In this document: positions 297-30,340 of the stretch, piece after piece
Position numbering within the stretch: the stretch's first letter is position 1
Layout: each line of letters begins with the position of its first letter
From: a virus
Taxonomy: Duplodnaviria > Heunggongvirae > Uroviricota > Caudoviricetes
Virus record (IMG/VR): IMGVR_UViG_2531839446_000015
Length of the DNA: 30,340 nucleotides
Direction: 5' to 3' (one strand)
The notes under the pieces: generated by a model
Told to the model about the DNA's origin: nothing
Seen by the model: the letters and a program-made list of their open reading frames with translations, nothing else
Database searches by the model: none
Translations under genes and position numbers: made by a program

Positions 297-1337
297 CTAA
301 GCTGTCGCGACATTTTTGCGACATTTTAGGGGGTTAAGTCGCACAGCATCTTCAAGGTGGCTTGGGGCGAAGTGGGCATAACGCATTGTCATGGTTATGT
401 CAGCGTGGCCGAGAATTTTTTGCAAAACCAGAATGTTTCCGCCGTTCATCATAAAGTGGCTGGCAAATGTATGGCGCAGTACATGGGTAAGCTGGCCGGA
501 GGGGAGTTCAATGCCTGCGCGTTCCAGAGCAGAGCGGAAAGCGTTGTAGCAGGGCTTGGGGAACAGAGCGCCTTTTGTTTCAGGTAATTCGGACAGAAGT
601 TCATCATCAAGGGGAATTGTTCTGTTGCGCTTCCCTTTGGTTTTGACGAACGTGACTTTACCCCCGGCGATCTGGGAGCTTTTCAGCGTTGCCGCCTCAT
701 TCCACCTTGCGCCGGTAGCAAGGCAGATTTTGACAACTAATTCTAGGTACTTAACTTTGCTTCGTTTGCATTCCAGTAAAAGCCGATCAATTTCTTCGGT
801 AGTGAGGAAAGCCATTTCGGTTTCATCAGTACGATACTGTCTGACGTTTTCCAGTGGGTTGGGTGCTGACCATTCACCAATCCGTTTCAGTTCATTGAAC
901 ATCGCTAGAAAGTAAGCATGTTCAAGGTTCATAGTTTTCGGGGAAACCTTAGATACTCTGTTGGTGCGGGCATAATGCCCATCCAGCCTTTTAGCGCGGT
1001 AGGCTGTGAACAACTGGGCATTAAATTCTGTGGCCAGCGGGAATCCCATGCATTCCGCCGCCCAGGTCATAGCATCTTTACGCTTTTCGCCATTGCTCAA
1101 AGCTACGCCGTGGCGTTCATACCACATTGTTATCAGATCTATTAAAGTTCGCTTGTCCTTCCCTTCACCCAGCCACGGAGCTGCGTCTACTTTCTGAAGC
1201 GTATGGTTTTCGAATGCCAGGGCTTCCCCTTTCGTGGCAAATTTTTTACGTATACGCTTCCCGTTCTTGCCATTACTGCGGTTGACGGTGTAGAAGTCGG
1301 CGATCCATTCGCCTGTAGGAAGTTTACGAACGCTCAT
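297..1337 (-). CDS. int: Tyrosine integrase (P2/186 family site-specific recombinase)
   Basis: 346 aa ORF; C-terminal catalytic signature HVLRHTFASHF ... LGHADITMTMRYAH (His/Arg box and active-site Tyr); lies directly downstream of the repressor gene with 1-nt spacing (cI stop 1339-1341, int ATG 1335-1337), as in 186. Confidence 0.9.
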   Translation of the reverse strand: MSVRKLPTGEWIADFYTVNRSNGKNGKRIRKKFATKGEALAFENHTLQKVDAAPWLGEGKDKRTLIDLITMWYERHGVALSNGEKRKDAMTWAAECMGFPLATEFNAQLFTAYRAKRLDGHYARTNRVSKVSPKTMNLEHAYFLAMFNELKRIGEWSAPNPLENVRQYRTDETEMAFLTTEEIDRLLLECKRSKVKYLELVVKICLATGARWNEAATLKSSQIAGGKVTFVKTKGKRNRTIPLDDELLSELPETKGALFPKPCYNAFRSALERAGIELPSGQLTHVLRHTFASHFMMNGGNILVLQKILGHADITMTMRYAHFAPSHLEDAVRLNPLKCRKNVATA

Positions 1338-1338
1338 T

Positions 1339-1962
1339 TTATTTTATCGTCAGAACAACGCGGCCTATGATTTTTATGTCGTCAATTCCGCAATCAAATG
1401 CCATACCAACACCGCTAACTCTGACTTTTCGTACCGGAATCCGTGTAAGAGTGCGGACGCTTGTTTTTCCTTCAACTTCAACCAACCAATCATCGTCATA
1501 AACTTCAGAATAAGACTGGTCAACAATGTACTGAATAAGGCCATCCAGAACACAAATCGGTTGTTGCGGTAAGGGCTTGCCAGGCAGGAAGATGACTTTA
1601 TCAAGCATAAGTGTGCCAGCGTCATAGAGTTGGCCATCAACAATCTTGCTGCGCGGCATTTTGAGTATGTCTAATTCATCATCATTAAATTTACGTCCCT
1701 GTCCTGTTGCCAGCCACTCCAGATTAGCGCCTGTTTCGGCTACGCATTTCACGACAATATCTGCCGGGAAAACTCCACGCTTGTAGCGTGAAGAAAGAGA
1801 ACTGGCTGCCATGTCCAGATGTTCCGCGAGCTGTAACTTCTGCGTAAATCCGTAAGCCTCGATCACCCTGTCAAGAATCGGTGTGCTATCTACGTTTAGG
1901 TCGATTTTAAATGTGCTCATAGCGAATCCATAAGTCTCGATTCGAGAAATTGCCATTGACAC
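1339..1962 (-). CDS. cI: CI-type immunity repressor (186 CI-like)
   Basis: About 205 aa; N-terminal EAYGFTQKLQLAEHLDMAASSLSSRYKRG and C-terminal CGIDDIKIIGRVV resemble my recollection of coliphage 186 CI; divergent from the apl/cII operon. The annotated start at 1962 is GTG; an in-frame ATG at 1954-1956 is an alternative start. Confidence 0.8.
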   Translation of the reverse strand: MSMAISRIETYGFAMSTFKIDLNVDSTPILDRVIEAYGFTQKLQLAEHLDMAASSLSSRYKRGVFPADIVVKCVAETGANLEWLATGQGRKFNDDELDILKMPRSKIVDGQLYDAGTLMLDKVIFLPGKPLPQQPICVLDGLIQYIVDQSYSEVYDDDWLVEVEGKTSVRTLTRIPVRKVRVSGVGMAFDCGIDDIKIIGRVVLTIK

Positions 1963-2307: not shown

Positions 2308-2811
2308 ATGTTTGATTACCAGACATCTAAACATGCGCACTTTGATGCGGCTTGCCGAGCATTTGCAACTGAGCACAATCTTGAAGATGTGGCCGCTGCT
2401 GTTGGTATGAGGCCACAGATCTTGCGCAACAAACTGAACCCAGCGCAACCGCACCGCCTAACCTGTGATGAGCTTTTGGCTATCACGGATTACACCGAAG
2501 ATGCACGTTTACTTGATGGGATGTTAGGTCAGATTAACTGCCTTCCATCCGTGCCGGTGAACAATGCCACTGAAGCCAACATGCAACTGTGTGCGCTTAG
2601 CGCCACTGCGTGTGTGGGAGCGATTGCTGGGGAAGCCGTATCAACTGGCCATATGACCGCCGCCCGCCGTGCTCAAATTTTGGATCGCGCCCGCGATGCA
2701 ATCCGTAGCTTATCCGTGCTGGCTTATACCGTTGAAAGCCGTATTCACTCTGCGCCGGTTCTGGCTGCTGCGGTGGATCTGGTCACAACCCACGCCACCG
2801 GCCTGATGTGA
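2308..2811 (+). CDS. cII: CII-like transcriptional activator (186 CII family)
   Basis: 167 aa; N-terminus MFDYQTSKHAHFDAACRAFA ... LRNKLNPAQPH ... CLPSVPVNN closely matches my recollection of 186 CII; purine-rich stretch upstream of the ATG at 2308. Confidence 0.75.
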   Translation: MFDYQTSKHAHFDAACRAFATEHNLEDVAAAVGMRPQILRNKLNPAQPHRLTCDELLAITDYTEDARLLDGMLGQINCLPSVPVNNATEANMQLCALSATACVGAIAGEAVSTGHMTAARRAQILDRARDAIRSLSVLAYTVESRIHSAPVLAAAVDLVTTHATGLM

Positions 2812-4133: not shown

Positions 4134-4453
4134 AAATTCATGCGGTAAAAATTGCGCCAAAATATCTTGATGCAGTAGTGGCTGGTCAGAAAAAGGCCGA
4201 GCTGCGAAAAAACGATCGCGGGTATAAAACCGGTGATGTTCTTTCATTGTGCGAGTGGAAGCACGGGAAATACACCGGGCGAGAGTGGGCGGCAGTTATC
4301 ACCCATGTTTTGCCGGTGAATGAAATTATCGCTGATACCGAAAATTGGGTGGTTTTATCTATCCGTTCGCTGTCACCGCTTGAAGTGCTGGAATACATCA
4401 TTTCAAACGGTGTAACAGAGTCGTTAGTTGGCGGAGGTCAATATGGCCGTTAA
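4124..4453 (+). CDS. ASCH-like / DUF3850-like small protein
   Basis: From internal ATG 4124: [45 protein letters not shown] resembles the DUF3850/ASCH pattern (KIWPEYFEAV..GKKTFEIRKNDRDFxVGD) as I recall it; overlaps the previous gene by 10 nt. Confidence 0.5.
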
Positions 4454-5303
4454 AACTCCGCTTAAATGGGTGGGCAGCAAAGCCCGCCTCATGCCTAAGC
4501 TGCGTCCGCACCTTCCAGAAGGTAAACGCCTGGTTGAACCGTTCGCAGGTTCCTGCGCCGTCATGATGAATACGGATTATGACGAGTATCTGATCGCAGA
4601 TGTGAATCCTGACCTGGTTAATCTTTATAAGGCGATGGCGTATCACACTAATGCGCTGCTGAATGAGCTGGAGATCCTGTTTTCTGCCGGTTCGTTAGGT
4701 GATGTAGAAAGCCGTGCCGTTTTCTATTACGCAGTGCGTGATGCTTTCAATCTTTCTGGTGGTAAGGCCGGTTCTGAATCTGTTGAAAATGCTGCGCGTT
4801 TCCTGTACCTGAACCGGCACTGCTTCAATGGTCTGTGTCGGTATAACCGTCGAGGCCAGTTCAACGTCCCGTTCGGTAAGTACAAAAAGCCTTATTTCCC
4901 CGCTGATGAAATCCGCGCCTTTGCTGAAAAAGCAAAACGCGCAACGTTCATTACTGCCCACTATTCAGAAACGCTTGATTTGGTTCGGGGCGGGAGTGAC
5001 GTTGTTTACTGTGATCCGCCTTATCTGACTGATGCCGACAATTTCACCGCTTACCATGAGCGCGGTTTTTCGCATATGGATCAGGGGCGGCTGGCGCGTA
5101 AACTGCGCCGTCTGGCGGAACGTGGGATTCCCGTTGTCGCGTCAAACAGCGATCTGGAAATGGTGCATTACCTGTATGCAGGGTTTGACGCCGTAAAGGT
5201 TAATGCGCCGCGTAGTGTCGGTGCGGCAGCTGCAAGCCCGAAAACGGCGGCAGAGCTGATTCTTAAATGGCCTTTACCGGCGACTTCTGAGGCCAGCGCA
5301 TGA
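4443..5303 (+). CDS. dam: DNA adenine methyltransferase, Dam (GATC) family
   Basis: Motifs [13 protein letters not shown] (N-terminal Dam/SAM motif) and DPPY (catalytic); GGAGG before ATG 4443; stop overlaps the A-gene start (ATGA at 5300-5303). Confidence 0.85.
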
Positions 5304-7321
5304 CGCTGGCAATAAACGAACAATGCTATGCCGTTGATGCCTGGAGGCGGGAAACTTTCGCACCAGGCACACCGGCAGACGCGACTATCACAGAACGCCG
5401 CCTGTGGGCTGTAAACCCGCAGGATTATGAATGGCGATCCCGGTACCTGCATGAGATACCCGACTGGTTAGCCGGGTATTTTGGCCGTCGCTATGAAAAG
5501 CTTTTTTCTGGCCGTGACGGGCGTCGCCGTGCCAATACATTCCTGCGCAAAACAATCGGTGAGAATGTATTGCCACGTCTGCGCAAAGTGGCTGCGCGTT
5601 ACTCGCTGGCCGCTGATGCTGCTGATCTTCCTTTTGGTAAGTCGCTGGAGCGCTTGCCGTCACTAGACCGTCCTGATCTTAAAAAACTGGCTGGCCAGGT
5701 ATCTGGCTGGATTTCCCAGTCACTTTATGACTTCACCGAACAGTTTGATTCCGGCACTGACGACGCCAGAGAGCTGCATCGCCGCACTCTGGAATCTTAC
5801 CGCCATCTTTGTGCCTGTTGCCTGATGCTGAATAACCAGCCGCCGTACTGGACTGAACATGAGGCCAATGAAGGTCAACTGGAAATGCGTAAGGCGGAAT
5901 CCGGGATACTGCGCATGATGGCGCCGGAATGGTGGTACCTGCGTCTTAAACGTGCGCGTGATACGCAGCGCGAGCACATGGCCATTGCGGTGGGACAGGT
6001 GCAAAAAGCGGCCAGCGCTTATGTATCCCGCAAAACACTGGGTGAATGGATAGACCAGAAAAAGCGGAATCTGGAGTTCTTTAAAAAGTTTGATCTGCTG
6101 AATGATGAGGGGCTGCGCATTGCACTGGACAGCATGGTGCACCGCAGCGTTGCAAATCCGGCGATCCGTCGATGTGAACTAATGGTAAGAATGCGAGGGT
6201 TTGAAGATATGGCCAATGAAGAAGGGCTGGCCGGTGAGTTTTACACTATCACCGCGCCATCACGTTTCCATGCGGTTCACAGCAAAGGGGGCTTTGTATC
6301 GCAATGGGATGGAAGTACGCCGCAGGATACCCAGCGCTATTTATGCGGCGTATGGGCAAAAGCGCGTGCAGCGATCTCGCGTGCTGGTATCCATGTATTT
6401 GGGTTTCGGGTTGTTGAGCCTCACCATGACGGGACACCGCACTGGCATATGTTGCTTTTTATGCGTCCGCAGGACGTGGACACGGTACGCGATATTCTTT
6501 GTTATCACGCCAGAATTACCGATTCTGAAGAACTGCAATCTGAAAAGGCGCTGAAGGCGCGTTTTCATGTTGAAGCTATCGATCCCGCCAAAGGTTCGGC
6601 CACGGGCTACATCGCGAAATACATTTCAAAAAATATTGATGGTTTTGCGCTGGATGGTGAGCAGGACGAAGAAACCGGCGAAAACCTGCGTGATATGGCT
6701 AAGTCCGTTTCCGCGTGGGCTTCACGCTGGCGTATTCGCCAGTTTCAGCAGATTGGTGGTGCGCCGGTAACCGTCTGGCGTGAGCTGCGTCGGTTGCGGG
6801 ATCAGGTACTGACAGATCGCAGAATGGATGCGGTTCTGGCCGCTGCTGATGTCGGGGACTGGGCTGCATATACCCAGGCGCAGGGAGGTGCACTGGTTGC
6901 CCGCCGTGATCTGGTTGTTCGTCTGGCCTATGAAATTACGGAACAGGGCAACGAATACGCGGAGGACGTGCAGCGCGTACAGGGTGTTTATTCTCCTTTG
7001 ATTCCTGATTCAGAAGTTTGCACCCGTCTGGTTAAGTGGCAAAAGGTTGCGAAGTTGGCCGAAGCGCCAGCGGAGGCGGGTTTTTCTGGCGGCAACGCCG
7101 CCCCTTGGAGTTCTGTCAATAACTGTACGGAGGGGGGAACCCGCAGACGGTTAAAACTGGAATTACGCAGTCGGGGTTTTGAGGGTTCCGATGAAGAAAT
7201 AGCCATTCTCCTGCGGGGTAGTGGTTTGATATTTGGTCAGGGGGCACTGATTTACCGCAATGGGCGGTTGAAGGAAACACGAAACGAACCATTGCAGGAG
7301 CTTTGGCCGGGGTGGTTATAG
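5300..7321 (+). CDS. Rolling-circle replication initiator (P2 gpA / 186 A family endonuclease)
   Basis: 673 aa; HUH-type motif PHWHMLLF and active-site tyrosine region YIAKYISKN; position after the early operon. Confidence 0.85.
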   Translation: MTLAINEQCYAVDAWRRETFAPGTPADATITERRLWAVNPQDYEWRSRYLHEIPDWLAGYFGRRYEKLFSGRDGRRRANTFLRKTIGENVLPRLRKVAARYSLAADAADLPFGKSLERLPSLDRPDLKKLAGQVSGWISQSLYDFTEQFDSGTDDARELHRRTLESYRHLCACCLMLNNQPPYWTEHEANEGQLEMRKAESGILRMMAPEWWYLRLKRARDTQREHMAIAVGQVQKAASAYVSRKTLGEWIDQKKRNLEFFKKFDLLNDEGLRIALDSMVHRSVANPAIRRCELMVRMRGFEDMANEEGLAGEFYTITAPSRFHAVHSKGGFVSQWDGSTPQDTQRYLCGVWAKARAAISRAGIHVFGFRVVEPHHDGTPHWHMLLFMRPQDVDTVRDILCYHARITDSEELQSEKALKARFHVEAIDPAKGSATGYIAKYISKNIDGFALDGEQDEETGENLRDMAKSVSAWASRWRIRQFQQIGGAPVTVWRELRRLRDQVLTDRRMDAVLAAADVGDWAAYTQAQGGALVARRDLVVRLAYEITEQGNEYAEDVQRVQGVYSPLIPDSEVCTRLVKWQKVAKLAEAPAEAGFSGGNAAPWSSVNNCTEGGTRRRLKLELRSRGFEGSDEEIAILLRGSGLIFGQGALIYRNGRLKETRNEPLQELWPGWL

Positions 7322-7440
7322 GTGTGCATGTGTGTGTAACACATTCATTTGTCAGTAGATGGCAGGAAATTAAATTTCACAATTCGTGCTTTAAGGTGTA
7401 CTGTATGTATATCCAGTTATTTATTGCTTGTGGGGGCTAA

Positions 7441-7647
7441 ATGGATCTTTTGGAGGCGTCGGCACAGCTGGAACGCATTGAGTTATTGGCCAAAATTGCC
7501 CATGTTTACGAAAGTAACCAGAGAGAAAAAACAATCGCTTTGGCCTGGATTGGAGAGCTTGCGGGAGAGGTTCGCGAAATGGTTAAAAAGGAAGGGCAAC
7601 GCCCCCAGAATGGGGGCATTTCAGGCGGCGGGAGTCGCTTTCAGTAG
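7441..7647 (+). CDS. Hypothetical small helical protein (68 aa), doubtful
   Basis: ORF in the A-to-portal interval; weak G-rich Shine-Dalgarno; 3' end overlaps the convergent ogr-like gene by 27 nt. Confidence 0.25.
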   Translation: MDLLEASAQLERIELLAKIAHVYESNQREKTIALAWIGELAGEVREMVKKEGQRPQNGGISGGGSRFQ

Positions 7648-7890
7648 GTCTAATGCCATCTGGCGCTGATCGGGTGAAAGTGCATTCAGTATTTTTTGCA
7701 CCATCGCATCACCCGCTTTAGCGCTGGGGCTGAGAGTGTGGGAGAACGTCAGATTCATAACAAACGTGTGGCCACACTCAACATCTGAACAGGCGCAGTA
7801 AATATCCGCAATTTGCCGGTGCTTCCTGTTCGTTTTACGAATAACAGCCTTTGAGCCGCATTCCGGGCATTCGATTTTCAGAACTCGCAT
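7621..7890 (-). CDS. ogr: Ogr/Delta-family zinc-finger late-gene transcription activator
   Basis: From ATG 7890 (GGAG upstream): MRVLKIECPECGSKAVIRKTNRKHRQIADIYCACSDVECGHTF gives C-x2-C-x22-C-x4-C spacing and a C-terminal TF motif as in P2 Ogr (CPLC ... CQNVNCSATF). The track ORF extends to 7944 with no Shine-Dalgarno. Confidence 0.7.
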   Translation of the reverse strand: MRVLKIECPECGSKAVIRKTNRKHRQIADIYCACSDVECGHTFVMNLTFSHTLSPSAKAGDAMVQKILNALSPDQRQMALDLLKATPAA

Positions 7891-7940
7891 ATTCCATGCT
7901 CCAGCTGTTAAATGATGCCTGGATTTTAGCCTGTTTCGCC

Positions 7941-9002
7941 TCATGCCGCACCCTTATCCGTTGATTCTGTGTAACTTAAATCAAAGTTAAGGTGTAGCCT
8001 TTCCGGTATTTCGGGATCATTGTTAACGGCCAGCATAAAACGGCGCTGGATGGGGGCAATTTCGCTTTTCTTGTAAATGCGTTCAGCCTTTTCAACATCC
8101 CCCAGTCCGGCAGTGTTCTGCGGGACAATACCGGCGAGGCCAGCAGGGAAACGGTGAGCGTTCAGAATGTCCTGGGCGCTGATGTTCTTGATGTTGGCAA
8201 ATTCATCCTTTGCGGAAATATCCCCCATTTCAATGAATTTGATGGCGTCGCCGTCTCCACCGGGAATGTTTACAAGGATGGTGGAGAAGTTACCGATCCC
8301 TTTGCTGTCACGCAGCTGCTGTTCAATTTCTTCCTCCATTTCGTCCGTCATGCTGGGATCGCGGGTATAAAGAATACCGCCTGTGTGCGCACCATTGTGG
8401 TAATAGCGGCGTCGGAAAATGACCGCTTCACTGTTAAGTAACGCGGAATGCACACCGCCTATGTAGTCCGGCAGCCCGTAGATATGCTGTTGCGGGTCAT
8501 ACATTTTGATGAAGATAATATCTTCTTCTGGCCATACCTGCGGTTCCCCTTCCTGTAACACCACGTAGTCACCAGGCTTATCCAGGGCGTTATCTCTGAC
8601 TTTGCGGCGGCGAATATACAGACCGGGCAAGGGTTCAAGTGCGATCACGTCACCCCAGCCGTTACGAATTTTGGCAATCGCAATATCCCCAAAGGTTATA
8701 TAGTCAAACGCTGCCGCTTCCAGCTGGTCGTGAATAAGCCCGCCCCCCTGGTAGTCTGAAACAATCATGTTTTTACGGGCGTGAATGATGCCGCCGTGCT
8801 GACCGTTAAGATTAATCAGTTGCGCGAGTGCCAGCCGGTCAATCGGCTGGGTGAAGTGATCGGCGGCATTGTCGTACCAGATATCACGGTAATCTGTGCC
8901 GGTAGTCAGAACTGGTTCAGGTTTGCCGAATGTGATAATGCTCATCTTTTTTGATTTGTCGCCGCGCTGGTCGCGCTTAACAAAGCGTTTCTTTTTACTC
9001 AT
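7941..9002 (-). CDS. Portal protein (P2 gpQ-like)
   Basis: 353 aa; overlaps the large terminase stop; gene order Q-P opposite to O-N-M-L as in P2. Confidence 0.85.
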   Translation of the reverse strand: MSKKKRFVKRDQRGDKSKKMSIITFGKPEPVLTTGTDYRDIWYDNAADHFTQPIDRLALAQLINLNGQHGGIIHARKNMIVSDYQGGGLIHDQLEAAAFDYITFGDIAIAKIRNGWGDVIALEPLPGLYIRRRKVRDNALDKPGDYVVLQEGEPQVWPEEDIIFIKMYDPQQHIYGLPDYIGGVHSALLNSEAVIFRRRYYHNGAHTGGILYTRDPSMTDEMEEEIEQQLRDSKGIGNFSTILVNIPGGDGDAIKFIEMGDISAKDEFANIKNISAQDILNAHRFPAGLAGIVPQNTAGLGDVEKAERIYKKSEIAPIQRRFMLAVNNDPEIPERLHLNFDLSYTESTDKGAA

Positions 9003-10774
9003 GCTGCCTCTTTCCTTACACCCCAGCGGGATTTAGGTTTGTTTTCATAATTAAGGGGTTCGTTATGCAGACCGTGGGTAATCGCCCAGAACGCCTCCGC
9101 GTGGCCGGTATCCTGGCTGCGGTCAGCGACAAACGTCATGGCGTTGCCGCTTTGTGTGGTGGTTCGGCGCACAGACATAAAGCTGGCGGCGATCTCTTTC
9201 AGGTTTTTATCCCACTCAATACGCTGGCTTTCCACCACGTCCACCGCTTTCAGTACCAGCTTATTTTTGGTGTTCAGGTCGTAACGAATAGGGACGGCCA
9301 CGCGCATGGCAAAATGCTGAATGTTGTCAAAAACACCCTGGCCAATGCCGGTAACGTCCACCCCCAGATATGTGAAGTTGTATTTTTTGAACAACTGCTC
9401 GATCTGTTTTGCCTGGTACCGGAAGTTCATGCCTTTCCAGTAAATCACCTTCAGAACGCGGAACTTCTCCACGGCGAGCATCGGTGGGGCGATGATGACA
9501 AAACAGGACAAATCCCCGCTGCGAGCCGGGTCAAAGCCGCCCCACACTGGCCTGTCACCGAATGGCCGCGCTGCATCTGGGTTGTGATCCTGCCAGGTGT
9601 CGATTTCAACGCCGCAGGCTTCCAGGTCGGAAAAGCTGAAAACGGAATCTTTGCTGTCAACGAACACGCACATATAGAGCATGTTAAAAGTGGCGTCGTT
9701 GTAGCGGTTGCGAAGTTTCTCGATGTTCGCCAGGTTGAAACCGCCCGCAATGGCATCTTCCATCGTAATGACGTAGCGCCATTGCCCATCCGGGCAGAGT
9801 CGCCCGCCGTCACGCATTTCGTTAAAGGAAGGAAACTTAATGGCCGCACGTTTTTTACTGCCCTGTTTCCACTCATCGCCCGTCCAGAACGGGTACGCCT
9901 GGTGCGTTTTTGCCGATGGCGTTGAAAAATAGGTGGTACGCCACTTGTCATGCGTGGCCATTGCGCTGGCCACTTCGTTAAGTTTTGCAAAGTTTGGTAC
10001 CCAGAAATATTCGTCACAGTACAGGTGGCCACTGTAGGACTGGGCGGTGTTTTTGTTGGTGGAGAGAAAACGCAGTTCTGCGCCGTTGCTTAAGCGGATC
10101 GGGTTACCGGTCAGCGTAATACCGAAATACTGCTCTGCAATATTCACGATGTAAGACCGGAACACTTCAGCCTGAGCCTTTGACGCTGACAGAAAGATTT
10201 GCGGATCGCCGGTCATCACCGCGTTTTCAAACGCTTCAAACGCAAAATACCAGGTCGCACCGATCTGGCGGCTTTTCAGGATATTCCTGACAAGCTGGCC
10301 AATGTTATTGCGCAGGTGTTTCTGATATTCAAAAAGATGTTCCTCAGCCCATGCGTCAAAGTCCTCCTGCGTCAGCGAGGTAATATCGTTTTTCTTGTAC
10401 TTCCGTTTGCTGCGCGGTTCGTCGTCATTGTTGTCCCGCGCAGCTGCTTGCCCGGAACTCTGACCGCTGGCCATTTTCTCTTTGTGTTTATTACTCTGCG
10501 CACGCAGTTTCGTGGCATGAGCAATGAGCATGTCCATTTCTTTCAGGTCGAGATCGGTTTTGTTATCGCGGCTGGCCAGCAGTTGGTAACGGCGTTCAAT
10601 CGCTTCCTCTGTGCTTTCAAAACTGAGCAAATCCGCCCAGCTGTATTTCTCCGCCCAGTAGTAAACGATCCGCGCATTCGGCAGATTTAATTCAGATGCG
10701 ATTTCCTTTGGCGTATAGCGGCGCAGATAAAGTGCGCGAACAACGCCTTTTAATTCTTCAGAGTATTTAGCCAT
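8999..10774 (-). CDS. Terminase large subunit, ATPase (P2 gpP-like)
   Basis: 591 aa; divergent from the scaffold gene; size and position match P2 gpP. Confidence 0.85.
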   Translation of the reverse strand: MAKYSEELKGVVRALYLRRYTPKEIASELNLPNARIVYYWAEKYSWADLLSFESTEEAIERRYQLLASRDNKTDLDLKEMDMLIAHATKLRAQSNKHKEKMASGQSSGQAAARDNNDDEPRSKRKYKKNDITSLTQEDFDAWAEEHLFEYQKHLRNNIGQLVRNILKSRQIGATWYFAFEAFENAVMTGDPQIFLSASKAQAEVFRSYIVNIAEQYFGITLTGNPIRLSNGAELRFLSTNKNTAQSYSGHLYCDEYFWVPNFAKLNEVASAMATHDKWRTTYFSTPSAKTHQAYPFWTGDEWKQGSKKRAAIKFPSFNEMRDGGRLCPDGQWRYVITMEDAIAGGFNLANIEKLRNRYNDATFNMLYMCVFVDSKDSVFSFSDLEACGVEIDTWQDHNPDAARPFGDRPVWGGFDPARSGDLSCFVIIAPPMLAVEKFRVLKVIYWKGMNFRYQAKQIEQLFKKYNFTYLGVDVTGIGQGVFDNIQHFAMRVAVPIRYDLNTKNKLVLKAVDVVESQRIEWDKNLKEIAASFMSVRRTTTQSGNAMTFVADRSQDTGHAEAFWAITHGLHNEPLNYENKPKSRWGVRKEAA

Positions 10775-10826
10775 GCGGATAATTATGCCGTGGCTGTGAT
10801 GAAAAAACGGTGGTGTTAATTCGTGT

Positions 10827-10855
10827 CTGTTCGGTAAAGCGTTATAACCGAACTG
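10827..10855. promoter_or_regulatory. Inverted repeat in the divergent late-promoter region, candidate activator site
   Basis: GTTCGG (10829-10834) and CCGAAC (10848-10853) separated by 13 nt, flanked by direct CTGTTC repeats; lies between the divergent P and O starts. It does not match the P2 TGT-N12-ACA consensus. Confidence 0.25.
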
Positions 10856-13538: not shown

Positions 13539-13775
13539 ATGAAAGAAAGCCATTTACAAGGTGCACATACCCATACCGTGGGGGCACATAGCCATTCTCT
13601 GGGTGGTGCACATACCCATACCGTGGGGGCACATAGCCATTCTCTGGGTGGTGCACATACCCATACCGTGGGGGCACATAGCCATTCTCTGGGTGGTGCA
13701 CATACCCATACCGTGGGTGCACATAGCCATTCTCTGAGTGGTGCACATACGCACACTTTTAATACTGAGCAGTAA
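13539..13775 (+). CDS. His-rich HxH tandem-repeat small protein (78 aa)
   Basis: AAGGA 9 nt upstream of ATG 13539; protein is MKESHLQ + (GAHTHTVGAHSHSLG)x4 + GAHTHTFNTEQ. Sits between the small terminase and head-completion genes, where P2 has no gene. Confidence 0.45.
   Translation: MKESHLQGAHTHTVGAHSHSLGGAHTHTVGAHSHSLGGAHTHTVGAHSHSLGGAHTHTVGAHSHSLSGAHTHTFNTEQ
13561..13758. repeat. Tandem 45-bp direct repeat, about 4.4 copies
   Basis: Unit GTGCACATACCCATACCGTGGGGGCACATAGCCATTCTCTGGGTG starts at 13561, 13606, 13651 and 13696 (fourth copy with 2 substitutions), then a partial copy; the first three copies are identical. Confidence 0.95.
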
Positions 13776-28383: not shown

Positions 28384-29100
28384 TTACTTTAAACTGAGTT
28401 TAAAATTTTTGAATTTACCATACAGGGTATCGCGTACAGAAAAGGAAGGAACCCAATTGAATCCTGTTCGCCATGGGCGAGGACTACCGTGAAAGCATAC
28501 AACTGAAACATCATCAGGAACTTTGCCAGTAGCATAATCTGATGCCAAGTCAGGGTTGTAACCTATCATTTTACGTGTGGCTATATGGCATTTGTAACTA
28601 ACAACAGATCCGGGAATTATATCTTGCCACAATACAGGTTTCATGACGCTACCCAGAAACCCCTGATCACCCCATTTATCTTCTGTTTGGCATTCATGCA
28701 TATTTTTTTCGGGGTCAGTCCAGAACGCATCCCAAACATATTGTTTGATAGACGCAGGAATGAACATAATGGATGAGTTAACCCTGGAAGGGTGGTTAAA
28801 CTCCCGCAGCATAGTGAACTCTTTCGCCGCATCAAAGATTTTGATATCACCAGTTATGACAACATCAACGTCAAAATAAAGCAGATCCTTATCACCTATT
28901 ACCGGATGGTTTGGATTAAAAAGCTCAATCTTAGACCACCAACCTGGAAGGTTGTGCATTAACGGTGCGGTTTCAACACCAGGGATACTTCCAGCATCAG
29001 TTAAGCAAATTGAAGGTATGCCTTTAAATTGGCTATGCAGCCATTGTGCGTGTTTGGGGGTAAATTCTTTACCGCATTTAAGGACGGATACAATCAGCAT
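28384..29100 (-). CDS. Putative glycosyltransferase-like protein (DxD-type motif), AT-rich cargo or flanking gene
   Basis: 238 aa; motif LLYFDVDVVITGD resembles the DxD region of GT-A fold nucleotide-sugar transferases; AT-rich relative to the prophage; own terminator. Functional call is weak. Confidence 0.4.
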   Translation of the reverse strand: MLIVSVLKCGKEFTPKHAQWLHSQFKGIPSICLTDAGSIPGVETAPLMHNLPGWWSKIELFNPNHPVIGDKDLLYFDVDVVITGDIKIFDAAKEFTMLREFNHPSRVNSSIMFIPASIKQYVWDAFWTDPEKNMHECQTEDKWGDQGFLGSVMKPVLWQDIIPGSVVSYKCHIATRKMIGYNPDLASDYATGKVPDDVSVVCFHGSPRPWRTGFNWVPSFSVRDTLYGKFKNFKLSLK

Positions 29101-29281
29101 ATGGGAATCCCATTCTTTAGAGCAATAGTGTGCATTTTTTGAACATCGGCAATACTAAAATAAATAGTCAGGGCATAATTTTCTTAGGTAAGAGTCATGA
29201 TGCCTCATGCCATTCCTTACGTAAAGCTAGGCAGACTCAGCATAATGAGGGGACAAAAAGGGGACGCTGACCACTACAAAC

Positions 29282-29309
29282 AAAAAAGCCACTCCGTCAG
29301 AAGTGGCTT
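29282..29309 (-). terminator. Rho-independent terminator just downstream of the tRNA-like fragment
   Basis: Stem AGCCACT (29288-29294) pairs with AGTGGCT (29303-29309); followed on the minus strand by a U6 run (plus-strand A-run 29282-29287). Confidence 0.6.
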
Positions 29310-29335
29310 AATTATATGATTATAAAGCTAAAATT

Positions 29336-29380
29336 TGGTGGCCCCTTGGACTTGAACCAGCGCCCGGGCGATTATAAGTC
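29336..29380 (-). tRNA. Partial tRNA (3' half, anticodon loop to CCA), tRNA-Ile2/Met(CAU)-like; probable attachment-site remnant
   Basis: Minus-strand sense GACTTATAATCGCCCGGGCGCTGGTTCAAGTCCAAGGGGCCACCA aligns with my recollection of E. coli ileX from the anticodon loop to the 3' end (GACTCATAATCGCTTGGTCGCTGGTTCAAGTCCAGCAGGGGCCACCA), with a few substitutions and a 2-nt gap. Upstream sequence is AT-rich and cannot form an acceptor stem, so it is not an intact tRNA. Confidence 0.5.
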
Positions 29381-29556
29381 TTATGGTGTAACCTTTTGAT
29401 ATTTATATATAAATTTTATTTTTATGTGAATTTTAAGGATCTCTAACCGCTTTATTTTTGGCTAAAAAACCCGCAGTTGTAGCAATGATGCGGGTTGAGT
29501 TAGTCTTTAAAACTGAAATTGATCAGCCATAGCGTTCATAGGTAGCTGCGTATGCA

Positions 29557-29721
29557 TTAACGTTTTTTAGGTGGTGGGGCTACTTGCTGCGTTTGCTGCG
29601 TTTGCCGTGGTGGTTGATAACCATTGTTCTGCTGATTTGGCCTACTTGATGGTTGATATCCCTCATTTATAGGTTGCCAGCCATCATATTTAGTATTGTT
29701 TGCCGGTTTTTCTTCAGCCAT
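29557..29721 (-). CDS. Gln/Pro/Asn-rich micro-protein (54 aa), putative
   Basis: MAEEKPANNTKYDGWQPINEGYQPSSRPNQQNNGYQPPRQTQQTQQVAPPPKKR; its ATG overlaps the stop of the upstream membrane-protein gene (ATGGCTGA). Below the 60-aa track cutoff. Confidence 0.3.
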   Translation of the reverse strand: MAEEKPANNTKYDGWQPINEGYQPSSRPNQQNNGYQPPRQTQQTQQVAPPPKKR

Positions 29722-30340
29722 TTTTTACCTCACTATTGTTGGGAGAATGTAATTTTACCTCAATAAACTCAACACTTTCTATTTCATTAGTCAATATTAT
29801 TATGCCTAATGTATCAGCTAGTTCGTGATCGAAATCGCCATTCTCATCAAGCGCCCAATGTTTCTCAAGATAGATTTGTTCGGGTTCTGGACTATTGGAT
29901 GCAAATGAGTCACTTCCATAAAAACCACCATATTTTTTACCGTTTTTTAGTGTTACCAATACCCAGCAGCGTTGTCTGGTTGAGAAGAAGTAGTCCCAAG
30001 AGCGCCCTATAGGGTGTGGAAGAATATTTTTGACTTTTTCCCAGTTACGAATTTTTAGCAATGCAACAGGTAATAGTACAGGTATTACAATTAAAACTAA
30101 AAAGTAAAAAATGTAATATAAAATAGGGTGTTTCAAAAAAATGTCATTTGTTTCAATTAGATAAATTGGTATTAAAAGAAATGAAAAATTTATGCAACTA
30201 TATGAAACAACGTCAATTAAAACTTTTGATGTATCCAAATCAATTGATGGGTGAAATAGTCTGTAAACTCTCATGCTGATAAATCCGGGCATAATGAACA
30301 GTACAAATAAAAACAATTTCCCCTTCTCTAAAATGTCCAT
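29714..30340 (-). CDS. Membrane protein (three predicted TM helices plus C-terminal soluble domain), AT-rich island gene; 5' end at window edge
   Basis: 208 aa ORF with hydrophobic segments LFLFVLFIMPGFI, CINFSFLLIPIYLI and YYIFYFLVLIVIPVLLPVALL; AT-rich codon usage unlike the prophage. The ATG coincides with the last bases of the window, so the true start may lie beyond it. Confidence 0.5.
   Translation of the reverse strand: MDILEKGKLFLFVLFIMPGFISMRVYRLFHPSIDLDTSKVLIDVVSYSCINFSFLLIPIYLIETNDIFLKHPILYYIFYFLVLIVIPVLLPVALLKIRNWEKVKNILPHPIGRSWDYFFSTRQRCWVLVTLKNGKKYGGFYGSDSFASNSPEPEQIYLEKHWALDENGDFDHELADTLGIIILTNEIESVEFIEVKLHSPNNSEVKNG

Follow-up and report, generated by a model that had tools for sequence, protein, structure and literature searches.

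Is an Ogr/Delta-type zinc-finger gene that lies directly behind the portal gene a late activator that has moved, a paralogue with another regulatory role, or a gene in its customary place? In line with a sequence-only reading of the present DNA, the P2 record has ogr (24036-24254) next to attP, with tin/old between A and cos/Q. The interval between GpA and the portal gene, which that reading had also named as an accessory-gene hotspot, is described as a defence hotspot in P2-like phages (bioRxiv 10.64898/2026.02.27.708500). The DNA analyzed here, a stretch of 30,340 nucleotides referred to as the window, holds a P2-like prophage of the ESSI-2/Quadragintavirus type with near-identical phages in GenBank, for example ESSI2_ev015 (99% at the amino acid level). 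Of 5,426 complete E. coli genomes, 48 carry a prophage of this kind, and Salmonella, Citrobacter, and Enterobacter have them too. Comparisons were made with 80 relatives from IMG/VR, whose loci reach some 6 kb to either side and in most cases end before cI, and with a complete, PGAP-annotated prophage copy in E. coli MFDS1019527. The prophage ends carried no att-type direct repeats of at least 15 nt, a tRNA gene search found none, and an Rfam scan of positions 7000-8300 gave no meaningful match.

The two-gene interval

The gap between replication gene A and portal gene Q coincides exactly with 7322-7944 (623 bp). The left border of this A-to-Q interval is gene A, with which the early operon's series of large genes ends. 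The interval consists of two small, convergent regulatory genes, one ogr-like and the other encoding 68 amino acids (Table 1), whose 3′ ends overlap by 27 nt. GenBank/RefSeq annotation and publications on K139-type phages already document the ogr-like gene together with its family and position, and the ogr/Delta-like identity has already been assigned by NCBI PGAP.

Table 1. Coordinates of genes and candidate control elements in the window
Feature	Position	Strand	Basis or description
186-type CI repressor	1339..1962	-	Pfam Phage_CI_repr + Phage_CI_C
Replication gene A	5300..7321	+	Pfam Phage_GPA, E 6e-105
p95-like promoter with predicted LexA box	7376..7418	+	186 p95/LexA layout
Predicted -35, TTCACA	7376-7381	+	p95-like
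Predicted -10, TACTGT	7399-7404	+	17-nt spacer from -35
Predicted LexA box, TACTGTATGTATATCCAGTT	7399-7418	+	One mismatch to CTGT-N8-ACAG
Short Tum-like protein, 68 aa	7441..7647	+	phrog_698, E 2e-22; PGAP-annotated
G+C hairpin, predicted terminator of P-Q-ogr	7598..7620	-	10-bp stem
Ogr/Delta-family gene, long reading, 107 aa (324 nt)	7621..7944	-	Pfam PF04606; PGAP call
Short reading of this gene, 89 aa, beginning MRVLKIECPECG...	7621..7890	-	Conserved protein core
Cx2C-x22-C-x4-C zinc-binding motif	7774..7869	-	CPEC-x22-C-SDVE-C
Shine-Dalgarno TGGAGC of short form	7898-7903	-	
TAAAAT, candidate -10 for ogr-like gene alone	7923..7928	-	Invariance
Late operon genes P and Q	7941..10774	-	Upstream of ogr-like gene
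Portal gene Q	7941..9002	-	Pfam Phage_portal
Large terminase P	8999..10774	-	Pfam Terminase_6N/6C
Dyad TTCGG-N13-CCGAA	10830..10852	.	Between divergent P and O late operons

An Ogr-family gene in its ordinary position

Members of the Ogr/Delta family are expected to bind zinc and to activate late promoters via the alpha subunit of RNA polymerase. The long reading matches Pfam Ogr_Delta (PF04606) over all of the model (positions 1-47 of 47) at E 9.3e-20 and 70.7 bits (cut-off 26.3), and its residues 1-105 match phrog_603, annotated “transcriptional regulator,” at E 5e-44. Homologues at the equivalent position in ESSI2_ev015, ESSI-2, Yen324, SW3, and K139 are 54-99% identical. The domain match and the coordinates thus bear out the zinc-finger gene that the sequence-only reading had placed downstream of the portal gene, and its co-directional location directly downstream of both P and Q. 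A PDB sequence search with the protein retrieved no relative (best E-value 1.2), and the searchable literature yielded no experiment on it or its close relatives.

The gene is the only one of its kind. In a six-frame scan of the window for Cx2C-x15-30-C-x2-4-C, the sole other match is interrupted by a stop codon; the window therefore holds no second ogr, its right end included, where that reading had found none either. The complete MFDS1019527 prophage likewise has one CDS annotated as an “ogr/Delta-like zinc finger family protein” and no second; the second copy that had been named as weighing against the proposal is absent. Family membership and the lack of any alternative candidate make the ogr-like gene the best candidate for the late activator of the prophage.

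The order P-Q-ogr recurs in ESSI2_ev015, ESSI-2, Yen324, SW3, ev239, K139, phiO18P, F108, and phi3, and P-Q-ogr-...-rep is the normal layout, found also in HP2 and in 80 of 80 IMG/VR relatives. In every one of these 80 loci the core ATG follows the portal stop at a distance of 50-53 nt. Placement of ogr downstream of P-Q has been stated for K139 and Smhb1 (PMC8537503), and an ogr in the P2 position is absent from the whole lineage. Because the HP1/HP2/K139/ESSI-2 branch keeps the ogr-like gene here, its placement is ordinary and already documented. Half of the earlier phrase “relocated late activator” consequently survives: the gene is the best late-activator candidate, but it is relocated only by reference to P2 and 186, its position being the standard one in the nine genera or phages listed above and in all 80 relatives.

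The operon end and a candidate promoter

P, Q, and the ogr-like gene are co-transcribed, with the ogr-like gene last in a leftward late operon. Its core starts 50 nt past Q, its long form overlaps Q, and no terminator-like site was found on the minus strand between the two genes. The transcription unit ends at a predicted terminator, a hairpin (dG -17.1 kcal/mol, z -2.55) that adjoins the ogr stop codon and sits within the 3′ end of the Tum-like reading frame. This is the GC hairpin noticed earlier at 7601-7617, now extended to a 10-bp stem. Almost all of some 55 distinct variants have at the equivalent site a hairpin of the form CCCCC-loop-GGGGG, mostly followed by a T run, and so do ESSI-2, Yen324, SW3, and ev239, with different stem sequences; the T run is interrupted in the window's allele. 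In the P2 and 186 records, too, ogr and B each share the terminator of a late operon.

An activator dependent solely on the promoter that it activates would have no way to start. Within the Q/ogr junction, the hexamer TAAAAT probably provides the ogr-like gene with a promoter of its own, as judged from its pattern of conservation. It is identical across five genera while the flanking sequence diverges, it straddles codon boundaries (xTA AAA Txx) with the third positions fixed, and in 80 of 80 IMG/VR loci it occupies position -38 relative to the short-form ATG. One phage of V. cyclitrophicus has 3.8 kb of cargo on the opposite strand between Q and ogr, which must therefore be transcribed independently of Q there. 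No acceptable -35 was found for the candidate promoter, and a consensus scan of the minus strand found no sigma-70 promoter.

Two starts are conceivable for the protein. The short-form start is the one annotated in ESSI2_ev015, and K139 Orf13 begins at the residue equivalent to it. The ATG of the 107-aa form overlaps the TGA stop of Q (ATGA), and a start overlapping the Q stop, followed by an open frame, is present in 34 of 34 distinct upstream variants. It is possible, if rather doubtful, that the ogr-like gene lacks a separate promoter and that only the 107-aa protein is made, from the P-Q transcript and by coupling to the portal gene, TAAAAT being retained because it encodes the Leu-Lys with which a functional N-terminal extension begins. 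Such a reading would account for a start kept in four configurations (ATGA, TTGA, TGATG, and TAATG) and for an extension of 17-21 codons that is open in every variant, one of them with a 2-codon insertion; it also agrees with the 107-aa call of PGAP and with the outcome of the sigma-70 scan. As a protein, however, the extension is poorly conserved between genera, TAAAAT alone being invariant down to its third positions, and K139 and HP2 proteins lack it altogether. The separation of the gene from Q in the V. cyclitrophicus phage and the problem of an activator that needs its own activation in order to start argue further for a separate promoter.

A candidate operator between P and O

Late promoters of the P2 type carry an activator site, TGT-N12-ACA, at about -55. 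A search of the window for this site gave 5 matches against 8 expected by chance, none of them in late intergenic regions; target recognition must therefore differ from that of the P2 type. What the region between the divergent P and O operons contains, at its middle, is the dyad TTCGG-N13-CCGAA, which occurs once in the window (0.16 expected by chance) and has perfect 7-bp arms, GTTCGGT/ACCGAAC, spanning 10829-10853. It is kept across six genera, with a varying spacer, in ev015, ESSI-2, Yen324, ev239, K139, and phiO18P. Among 78 IMG/VR loci the dyad is exact in 62 and has one mismatch in 11 (73 of 78 together). The search for conserved sites upstream of the late operons that had been suggested from the sequence thus came out divided, with no P2-type site and a conserved dyad of another kind at P/O. 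By its position and conservation, this dyad is likely the operator of the Ogr-like protein.

A search for additional copies of the TTCGG dyad or of its conserved half TTCGGWTATAAC ahead of the remaining late genes gave near-matches at chance level only. A single dyad for about 20 kb of late genes implies either a very long rightward operon or other, unrecognized late promoters. A comparison of the cI/cox control region with the region upstream of ogr for shared CI-operator-like words returned only chance 10-mers with one mismatch.

A Tum-like gene with a predicted SOS promoter

The convergent 68-aa reading frame, already seen by the sequence-only reading and borne out by its family match and PGAP annotation (Table 1), encodes a short relative of 186 Tum. 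BLASTP aligns it to the Tum N-terminus at 32% identity over 38 aa (E 1e-5), and hhalign aligns its family profile to Tum residues 5-43 over 39 columns with a probability of 95.4% (E 1.9e-8). The PHROG families 698, 8554, and 1993 are common to the 68-aa protein and Tum by reciprocal matches. Pfam gave no match, the reading frame ending before any DinI-like C-terminal domain, and tblastn against a phage collection returned one close match only at E <= 1e-3. It took PHROG profiles and direct comparison, pairwise or by profile, to bring out the homology to Tum. A longer reading frame on the same strand, 7349..7669 (106 aa), was rejected as spurious; it has no family match and runs out of frame over the Tum-like gene.

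By its promoter layout, the 68-aa gene is predicted to be LexA-controlled: a putative LexA box begins at the -10 element of its p95-like promoter. A box in the same place is found in ev015, ESSI-2, Yen324, E. coli MFDS1019527, and K139 orf12, and at the equivalent site in 70 of 80 IMG/VR loci. The gene is a candidate SOS-induced antirepressor gene, and its presumed target is the 186-type CI encoded in the window, which shares 43% identity with 186 CI from end to end (E 3e-49). The protein is highly variable, with 38 distinct sequences in 72 loci; the window's version is 42% identical to the ev015 allele, and the flanks are 95-99% identical. Given a Tum-like SOS gene within it, the A-to-Q interval corresponds to the position of the 186 SOS operon and not to an accessory-gene island. 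The sequence-only reading had missed both the Tum-like, predicted LexA-controlled nature of this reading frame and the apparent role of the hairpin as terminator of P-Q-ogr.

Model and alternatives

Taken as a whole, a model in which a late activator ends the P-Q operon and a LexA-controlled, Tum-like antirepressor gene shares the interval is held with high confidence. The family memberships, the gene order, the conservation of every element, and the published placement are observations; the steps that connect them would run as follows. DNA damage would lead to LexA cleavage and release of the Tum-like gene, whose product would inactivate the 186-type CI and set off a lytic programme ending with Ogr-dependent late transcription. 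The TAAAAT promoter would supply the 89-aa form, and on the late transcript, translation coupled to Q might yield the 107-aa form. The Ogr-like protein would then act at the single P/O dyad to activate the late promoters and, since its gene is the last of the P-Q-ogr operon, late transcription would feed back on its synthesis.

A more elaborate version is improbable. It holds that the overlapping tum-like/ogr-like pair is a conserved regulatory unit with antisense control, two isoforms, and a new bidirectional operator. SOS-driven tum-like transcription would read across the ogr terminator and into ogr in antisense direction, which would delay the late activator until LexA has returned or replication is under way, and TTCGG-N13/14-CCGAA would serve as one bidirectional site driving both late operons.

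Less probable still is the second option of the sequence-only reading, an Ogr-family paralogue with another role, for example in the induction/SOS circuit, with the late genes activated by something else. In K139, phiO18P, and F108, a perfect LexA box stands just upstream of the homologue itself, a hint that the regulation of members of this subfamily may differ from that of P2 Ogr, and most relatives have the ogr-like gene and the SOS gene arranged tail to tail; the absence of TGT-N12-ACA sites would fit as well. In the window's lineage, however, the ogr-like gene has no LexA box of its own, and in the window itself a paralogue finds no support, the gene being single-copy with no P2-type ogr beside it. 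The prophage has no other member of the family, its remaining regulators (CI, Cox-like, and CII-like) include no other late-activator candidate, and an ogr in the P2 position is missing throughout the lineage. The conserved dyad, moreover, coincides exactly in position with the shared P/O activator site of P2. These points favor the Ogr-like protein as the late activator.

That the interval is a moron or defence hotspot with the 68-aa frame as cargo unrelated to phage regulation is very unlikely: the described GpA-portal hotspot, the variability of the frame, and the other genes found there in some relatives speak for it, but homology to the Tum N-terminus, a p95-like promoter with LexA box at a conserved position, a 186-type CI in the same prophage, and a Pfam search that gave no defence or accessory-type domain speak against it, and allelic diversity is expected of an antirepressor matched to its repressor.

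Implications for annotation

As a discovery these results carry little weight; the useful outcome is a set of corrected annotations. The “hypothetical” 68-aa gene can be read as a stand-alone Tum-type SOS antirepressor, and so can PHROG families 698, 8554, and 1993, now of “unknown function.” The A-to-Q interval would then represent an SOS input plus a late activator in place of accessory cargo. In this lineage, searches for late promoters should use TTCGG-N13/14-CCGAA and not the P2 consensus, and P2/186 gene order is an unsafe reference for HP1/K139/ESSI-2-like prophages. Together, these corrections help to predict the SOS inducibility of such prophages.

Comparison with known systems

The closest known counterparts are Orf13 of Vibrio phage K139 and its relatives in ESSI-2, Quadragintavirus, phiO18P, and HP2. 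Orf13, a zinc-finger ogr homolog, is 56% identical over 75 aa, including the post-finger segment ...FSHTLSPSAK.... As in the window, orf13 follows P and Q and precedes rep, its neighbor is a small convergent gene with a LexA box, and a TTCGG...CCGAA dyad stands between P and O. K139 differs in an additional orf14 between Q and orf13, in the LexA box of orf13 itself (shared with phiO18P and F108), and, like HP2, in a protein without the N-terminal extension. Its convergent partner, orf12, belongs to phrog_5581, whereas that of the window belongs to phrog_698, and no homology was detected between orf12 and the Tum-like frame.

With P2 Ogr, 186 B, and P4 Delta the protein shares its small size, the PF04606 domain, and the Cx2Cx22Cx4C spacing. 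The alignment with the Ogr family that the sequence-only reading had called for succeeds at the level of this domain but falls short for P2 Ogr, which is 28% identical over 39 aa only and weakly similar outside the cysteines; the C-terminal third is different. P2 ogr and 186 B, like the window's gene, are the last genes of a late operon with a shared terminator, ogr ending the F operon and B using terminator tB. The window's gene, in contrast, ends the P-Q operon and not the tail (F/D) operon, and is not beside att. In P2, too, a single activator site stands halfway between the divergent promoters of P and O, though of the form TGT-N12-ACA where the window has the candidate operator TTCGG-N13/14-CCGAA. 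Whereas 186 B is CI-repressed, no CI site was recognized at the window's gene.

The likeness to the 186 SOS operon extends from position to promoter. The Tum-like gene follows directly after gene A, the p95 promoter of 186 reads TTCACA-N18-TACTGT, the LexA box starts at the -10 in both, and the distance from LexA box to start codon is about 20 nt, as for 186 tum. The N-terminal 40 residues are homologous to those of Tum, and both phages encode a CI of the same type. In 186, however, Tum has 146 aa, against 68 aa here, where the DinI-like C-terminal domain is missing; neither orf97 nor a cos site follows the window's gene, the 3′ end of which instead overlaps the ogr-like gene by those 27 nt and holds its predicted terminator. 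The LexA/Tum pathway itself has been demonstrated experimentally in DuoHS, another P2-like E. coli prophage (PMC12055606).

Prophage layout and relatives

The window is a P2-like prophage whose gene order, read from the integrase onward, is given in the table. Its DNA is ~95% identical to that of the Escherichia phages ESSI2_ev015, ev040 and ev129 (Peduoviridae, Quadragintavirus), which are temperate and were isolated on E. coli (PMC6969025), and prophages 96–98% identical to it are carried by a minority of the E. coli strains with complete genomes, 48 of 5,426 having a match. Past the last tail gene, the region 28384-30340 holds two leftward ORFs, the first of 238 aa and without a family match, the second a DUF6338 protein that continues past the window end; an AT-rich stretch at 29400-29435 contains a 17-nt repeat. 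This region is probably cargo or host flank, and no att repeat was found at the prophage ends. Between the terminase small subunit gene M and an L-like gene, a 45-nt tandem repeat (13560-13750; 4.2 copies, 98% identical) reads in frame as a 78-aa His-rich ORF, 13539..13775(+), built of repeats of GAHTHTVGAHSHSLG; relatives have an annotated CDS of unequal length here, 198 nt in ev015 and 102 nt in E. coli MFDS1019527.

Features of the prophage, and LexA boxes before Ogr-like genes of relatives
Feature	Coordinates	Strand	Remark
Integrase	297..1337	-	first in gene order
186-type CI	1339..1962	-	
CII-like	2308..2811	+	
DUF3850			between CII-like and Dam methylase genes
Dam methylase	4428..5303	+	
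Replication gene A	5300..7321	+	left border of interval
Tum-like 68-aa ORF	7441..7647	+	
Ogr-like gene	7621..7944	-	
Portal Q	7941..9002	-	
Large terminase P	8999..10774	-	
O, N, M, then head, lysis, tail genes	to about 28.1 kb		rightward from P/O region
LexA box, K139 (locus L002)	5938-5953		before Ogr-like gene
LexA box, phiO18P (locus L010)	4931-4946		before Ogr-like gene
LexA box, F108 (locus L011)	4929-4944		before Ogr-like gene

Identity and placement of the Ogr-like gene

The sequence-only reading had placed an Ogr/Delta zinc-finger gene in the interval between A and Q (7322-7944), and database searches bear it out. The ORF covers the whole Pfam Ogr_Delta model at E 9.3e-20, scoring 70.7 bits where the cut-off is 26.3, and matches phrog_603, ‘transcriptional regulator’ (E 5e-44). 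Its CPEC-x22-C-x4-C motif, at 7774-7869(-), is the sole one in a six-frame scan of the window, barring one match that crosses a stop codon, and the complete PGAP-annotated copy of the prophage holds a single ‘ogr/Delta-like zinc finger family protein’ at the same position, so that neither source contains the second ogr elsewhere that would speak against this assignment. By domain and cysteine spacing, the predicted protein is an Ogr/Delta family member, and its place within the family is the K139 Orf13-type subfamily. The convergent 68-aa ORF and the GC hairpin noted in the same interval are both real.

Relocation of the gene had been one of two readings offered, and it holds only when P2 and 186 serve as the reference. 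Having P and Q followed by the ogr-like gene, then the replication gene on the opposite strand, is standard in the relatives examined: ESSI2_ev015, Cronobacter phage ESSI-2 (Seongnamvirus), Yersinia vB_YenM_324 (Yen324), Salmonella SW3/SI7, ESSI2_ev239, Aeromonas phiO18P, Pasteurella F108, Pseudomonas phi3 and Vibrio K139, where the gene is orf13, a ‘zinc-finger protein’. HP2 (NC_003315 9329-9553) has an unannotated Ogr-like ORF downstream of Q that matches query residues 2-76; the HP1 record (NC_001697; locus L009 about 10447-10680, -) has another just downstream of Q, split after the first CxxC by a frameshift that may be a sequencing error or mark a pseudogene. In all 80 IMG/VR loci (proteins 84–99% identical), the core ATG lies 50-53 nt after the portal stop codon. 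Annotation and literature already record Ogr/Delta genes that follow the portal gene, PMC8537503 doing so for K139 and Smhb1.

Nor is the interval an accessory island here, and it leaves no room for cos; other P2-like phages do have a defence hotspot between GpA and the portal gene (bioRxiv 10.64898/2026.02.27.708500). In Vibrio phage 10N.286.55.A5_PE003 (L013 1191-5000), ~3.8 kb of opposite-strand genes, including one for a 765-aa P-loop NTPase, is inserted between Q and the Ogr-like gene, so the cargo hotspot of that lineage lies between Q and ogr; the Ogr-like gene remains paired with a convergent LexA-box gene.

Expression of the Ogr-like gene

No terminator-like site was found between Q and the ogr-like gene. 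Directly 3′ of the ogr-like stop codon, a 10-bp G+C hairpin (7598-7620; -17.1 kcal/mol) recurs at the same place in nearly all of ~55 distinct sequence variants and in four other genera. Since its position is kept and a T run mostly follows while the stem sequences differ, it is the predicted terminator of a P-Q-ogr operon; the window's allele has an interrupted T run.

Two start codons are possible, 7944 (107 aa) and 7890 (89 aa). The first of these ATGs shares bases with the Q stop (ATGA), and an overlapping start (ATGA, TTGA, TGATG or TAATG) with an open frame is kept in 34 of 34 distinct upstream variants, which argues for translational coupling to Q and a predicted 107-aa form. Between genera, the protein sequence of the N-terminal extension is little conserved; its sole invariant stretch, TAAAAT (7923-7928, minus strand), crosses codon boundaries. 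The second ATG is 38 nt further on and has a Shine-Dalgarno sequence, TGGAGC, and the K139 and HP2 proteins start at the equivalent residue. For a candidate ogr promoter, no recognisable -35 was found. In the V. cyclitrophicus phage, ogr must be transcribed independently, because 3.8 kb of opposite-strand genes separate it from Q. For the window's gene, the proposed picture is a separate promoter, weak or regulated, that would yield the 89-aa protein, with late-operon read-through as a second source.

A candidate late operator

The P2 late-promoter element, TGT-N12-ACA, is absent from the late intergenic regions of the window; a conserved TTCGG dyad is present in the P/O region. The protein belongs to the family, yet has only 28% identity to P2 Ogr and no such operator, and so most likely acts in the manner of Ogr through another DNA site. 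Between P and O, 161 bp of intergenic DNA contain a perfect dyad, GTTCGGT-N11-ACCGAAC (10829-10853), which as TTCGG-N13-CCGAA is unique in the window (0.16 expected by chance). These half-sites, 13 or 14 bp apart, recur in the P/O regions of ev015, ESSI-2, Yen324, ev239, K139 and phiO18P and in 73 of 78 IMG/VR loci, 62 of them with an exact match; the spacer differs in sequence and the flanks have otherwise diverged among relatives. No TTCGG dyad occurs anywhere in the P2 genome, and no second one was found upstream of other late genes in the window. Given these conserved half-sites, the missing TGT-N12-ACA and the one annotated activator site between the P and O start sites of P2, the dyad is proposed as candidate operator of this Ogr subfamily, serving both divergent late promoters.

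The P/O region of Salmonella phage SW3 (L007) keeps the TTCGGTTATAAC half of the dyad, with the second half-site (ACCGAT) displaced ~10 bp, one helical turn. A CATAAT at 10782-10787(-), conserved across genera (AATTATG/ATCATA block of a multi-genus alignment), precedes the ATG of P (10772-10774) by only 7 nt; should this hexamer serve as the -10 for P, the transcript would have no leader or almost none.

A Tum-like ORF behind a probable SOS promoter

The 68-aa ORF matches phrog_698 (E 2e-22), phrog_8554 and phrog_1993, all listed as ‘unknown function’, as do the N-terminal 60 residues of Tum, the SOS antirepressor of phage 186. Its residues 4-41 align with Tum 5-42 by BLASTP (32%, E 1e-5), and a 17-sequence family profile aligns with Tum 5-43 by hhalign (probability 95.4%, E 1.9e-8). 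The ORF is preceded by TTCACA (7376-7381), a 17-nt spacer and TACTGT (7399-7404), with a LexA-box 20-mer, TACTGTATGTATATCCAGTT, at 7399-7418. The arrangement is that annotated for 186 p95, where TTCACA and TACTGT are 18 nt apart, the box begins at the -10 and tum follows 19 nt after it. LexA boxes, mostly perfect CTGT-N8-ACAG, recur at this position in ev015, ESSI-2, Yen324 and the E. coli prophage, and one precedes K139 orf12 at the corresponding place; 70 of 80 IMG/VR loci have a box, 69 of them with a Tum-like ORF. Over its full length, the prophage CI shares 43% identity with that of 186, and it lacks a LexA-like cleavage domain. In 186 the SOS operon directly follows gene A. In another P2-like E. 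coli prophage, LexA/Tum control of induction was shown genetically (PMC12055606). From the Tum homology, the p95-like promoter with its LexA box, the 186-type CI, the position after A and this precedent, the ORF is best read as a predicted short, stand-alone Tum-type antirepressor without the DinI-like domain.

Comparison of window 7441-7600 with a relative's locus (L001 6340-6510) and 72 IMG/VR loci identifies the Tum-like gene as a mosaic hot spot: 38 distinct protein sequences occur in the 72 loci between nearly identical flanks, and the window's allele is 42% identical to that of ev015 inside otherwise 95–99% identical DNA. At least two types exist, …LERIELLAK… and …LQRIALFT…, which probably track immunity type; such allelic diversity is consistent with a protein that has to fit its repressor. 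The stretch coding for the Gly-rich tail faces the ogr terminator and last ogr codons on the other strand, and the 27-nt overlap of the two genes is nearly constant.

In K139, phiO18P and F108, the Ogr-like gene is itself preceded, at 40-60 nt, by a perfect LexA box (CTGT-N8-ACAG, AT-rich spacer). The SOS response may act directly on the late activator in these phages; no such box was found before the ogr-like gene in the window's lineage.

Comparison with known systems

Three points may be new: that phrog_698-type ORFs can be read as short Tum homologues, that the TTCGG dyad is the candidate late operator of the lineage, and that LexA boxes stand in front of the K139, phiO18P and F108 ogr-like genes. 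The P2 record assigns the terminator behind ogr to the ‘ogr transcript and F operon’, and in the 186 record tB terminates ‘transcription from pB and late promoter’; in both phages, therefore, the activator is the last gene of a late operon and has its own promoter besides. By analogy, the same logic probably holds for the ogr-like gene described here, at the end of a different late operon.
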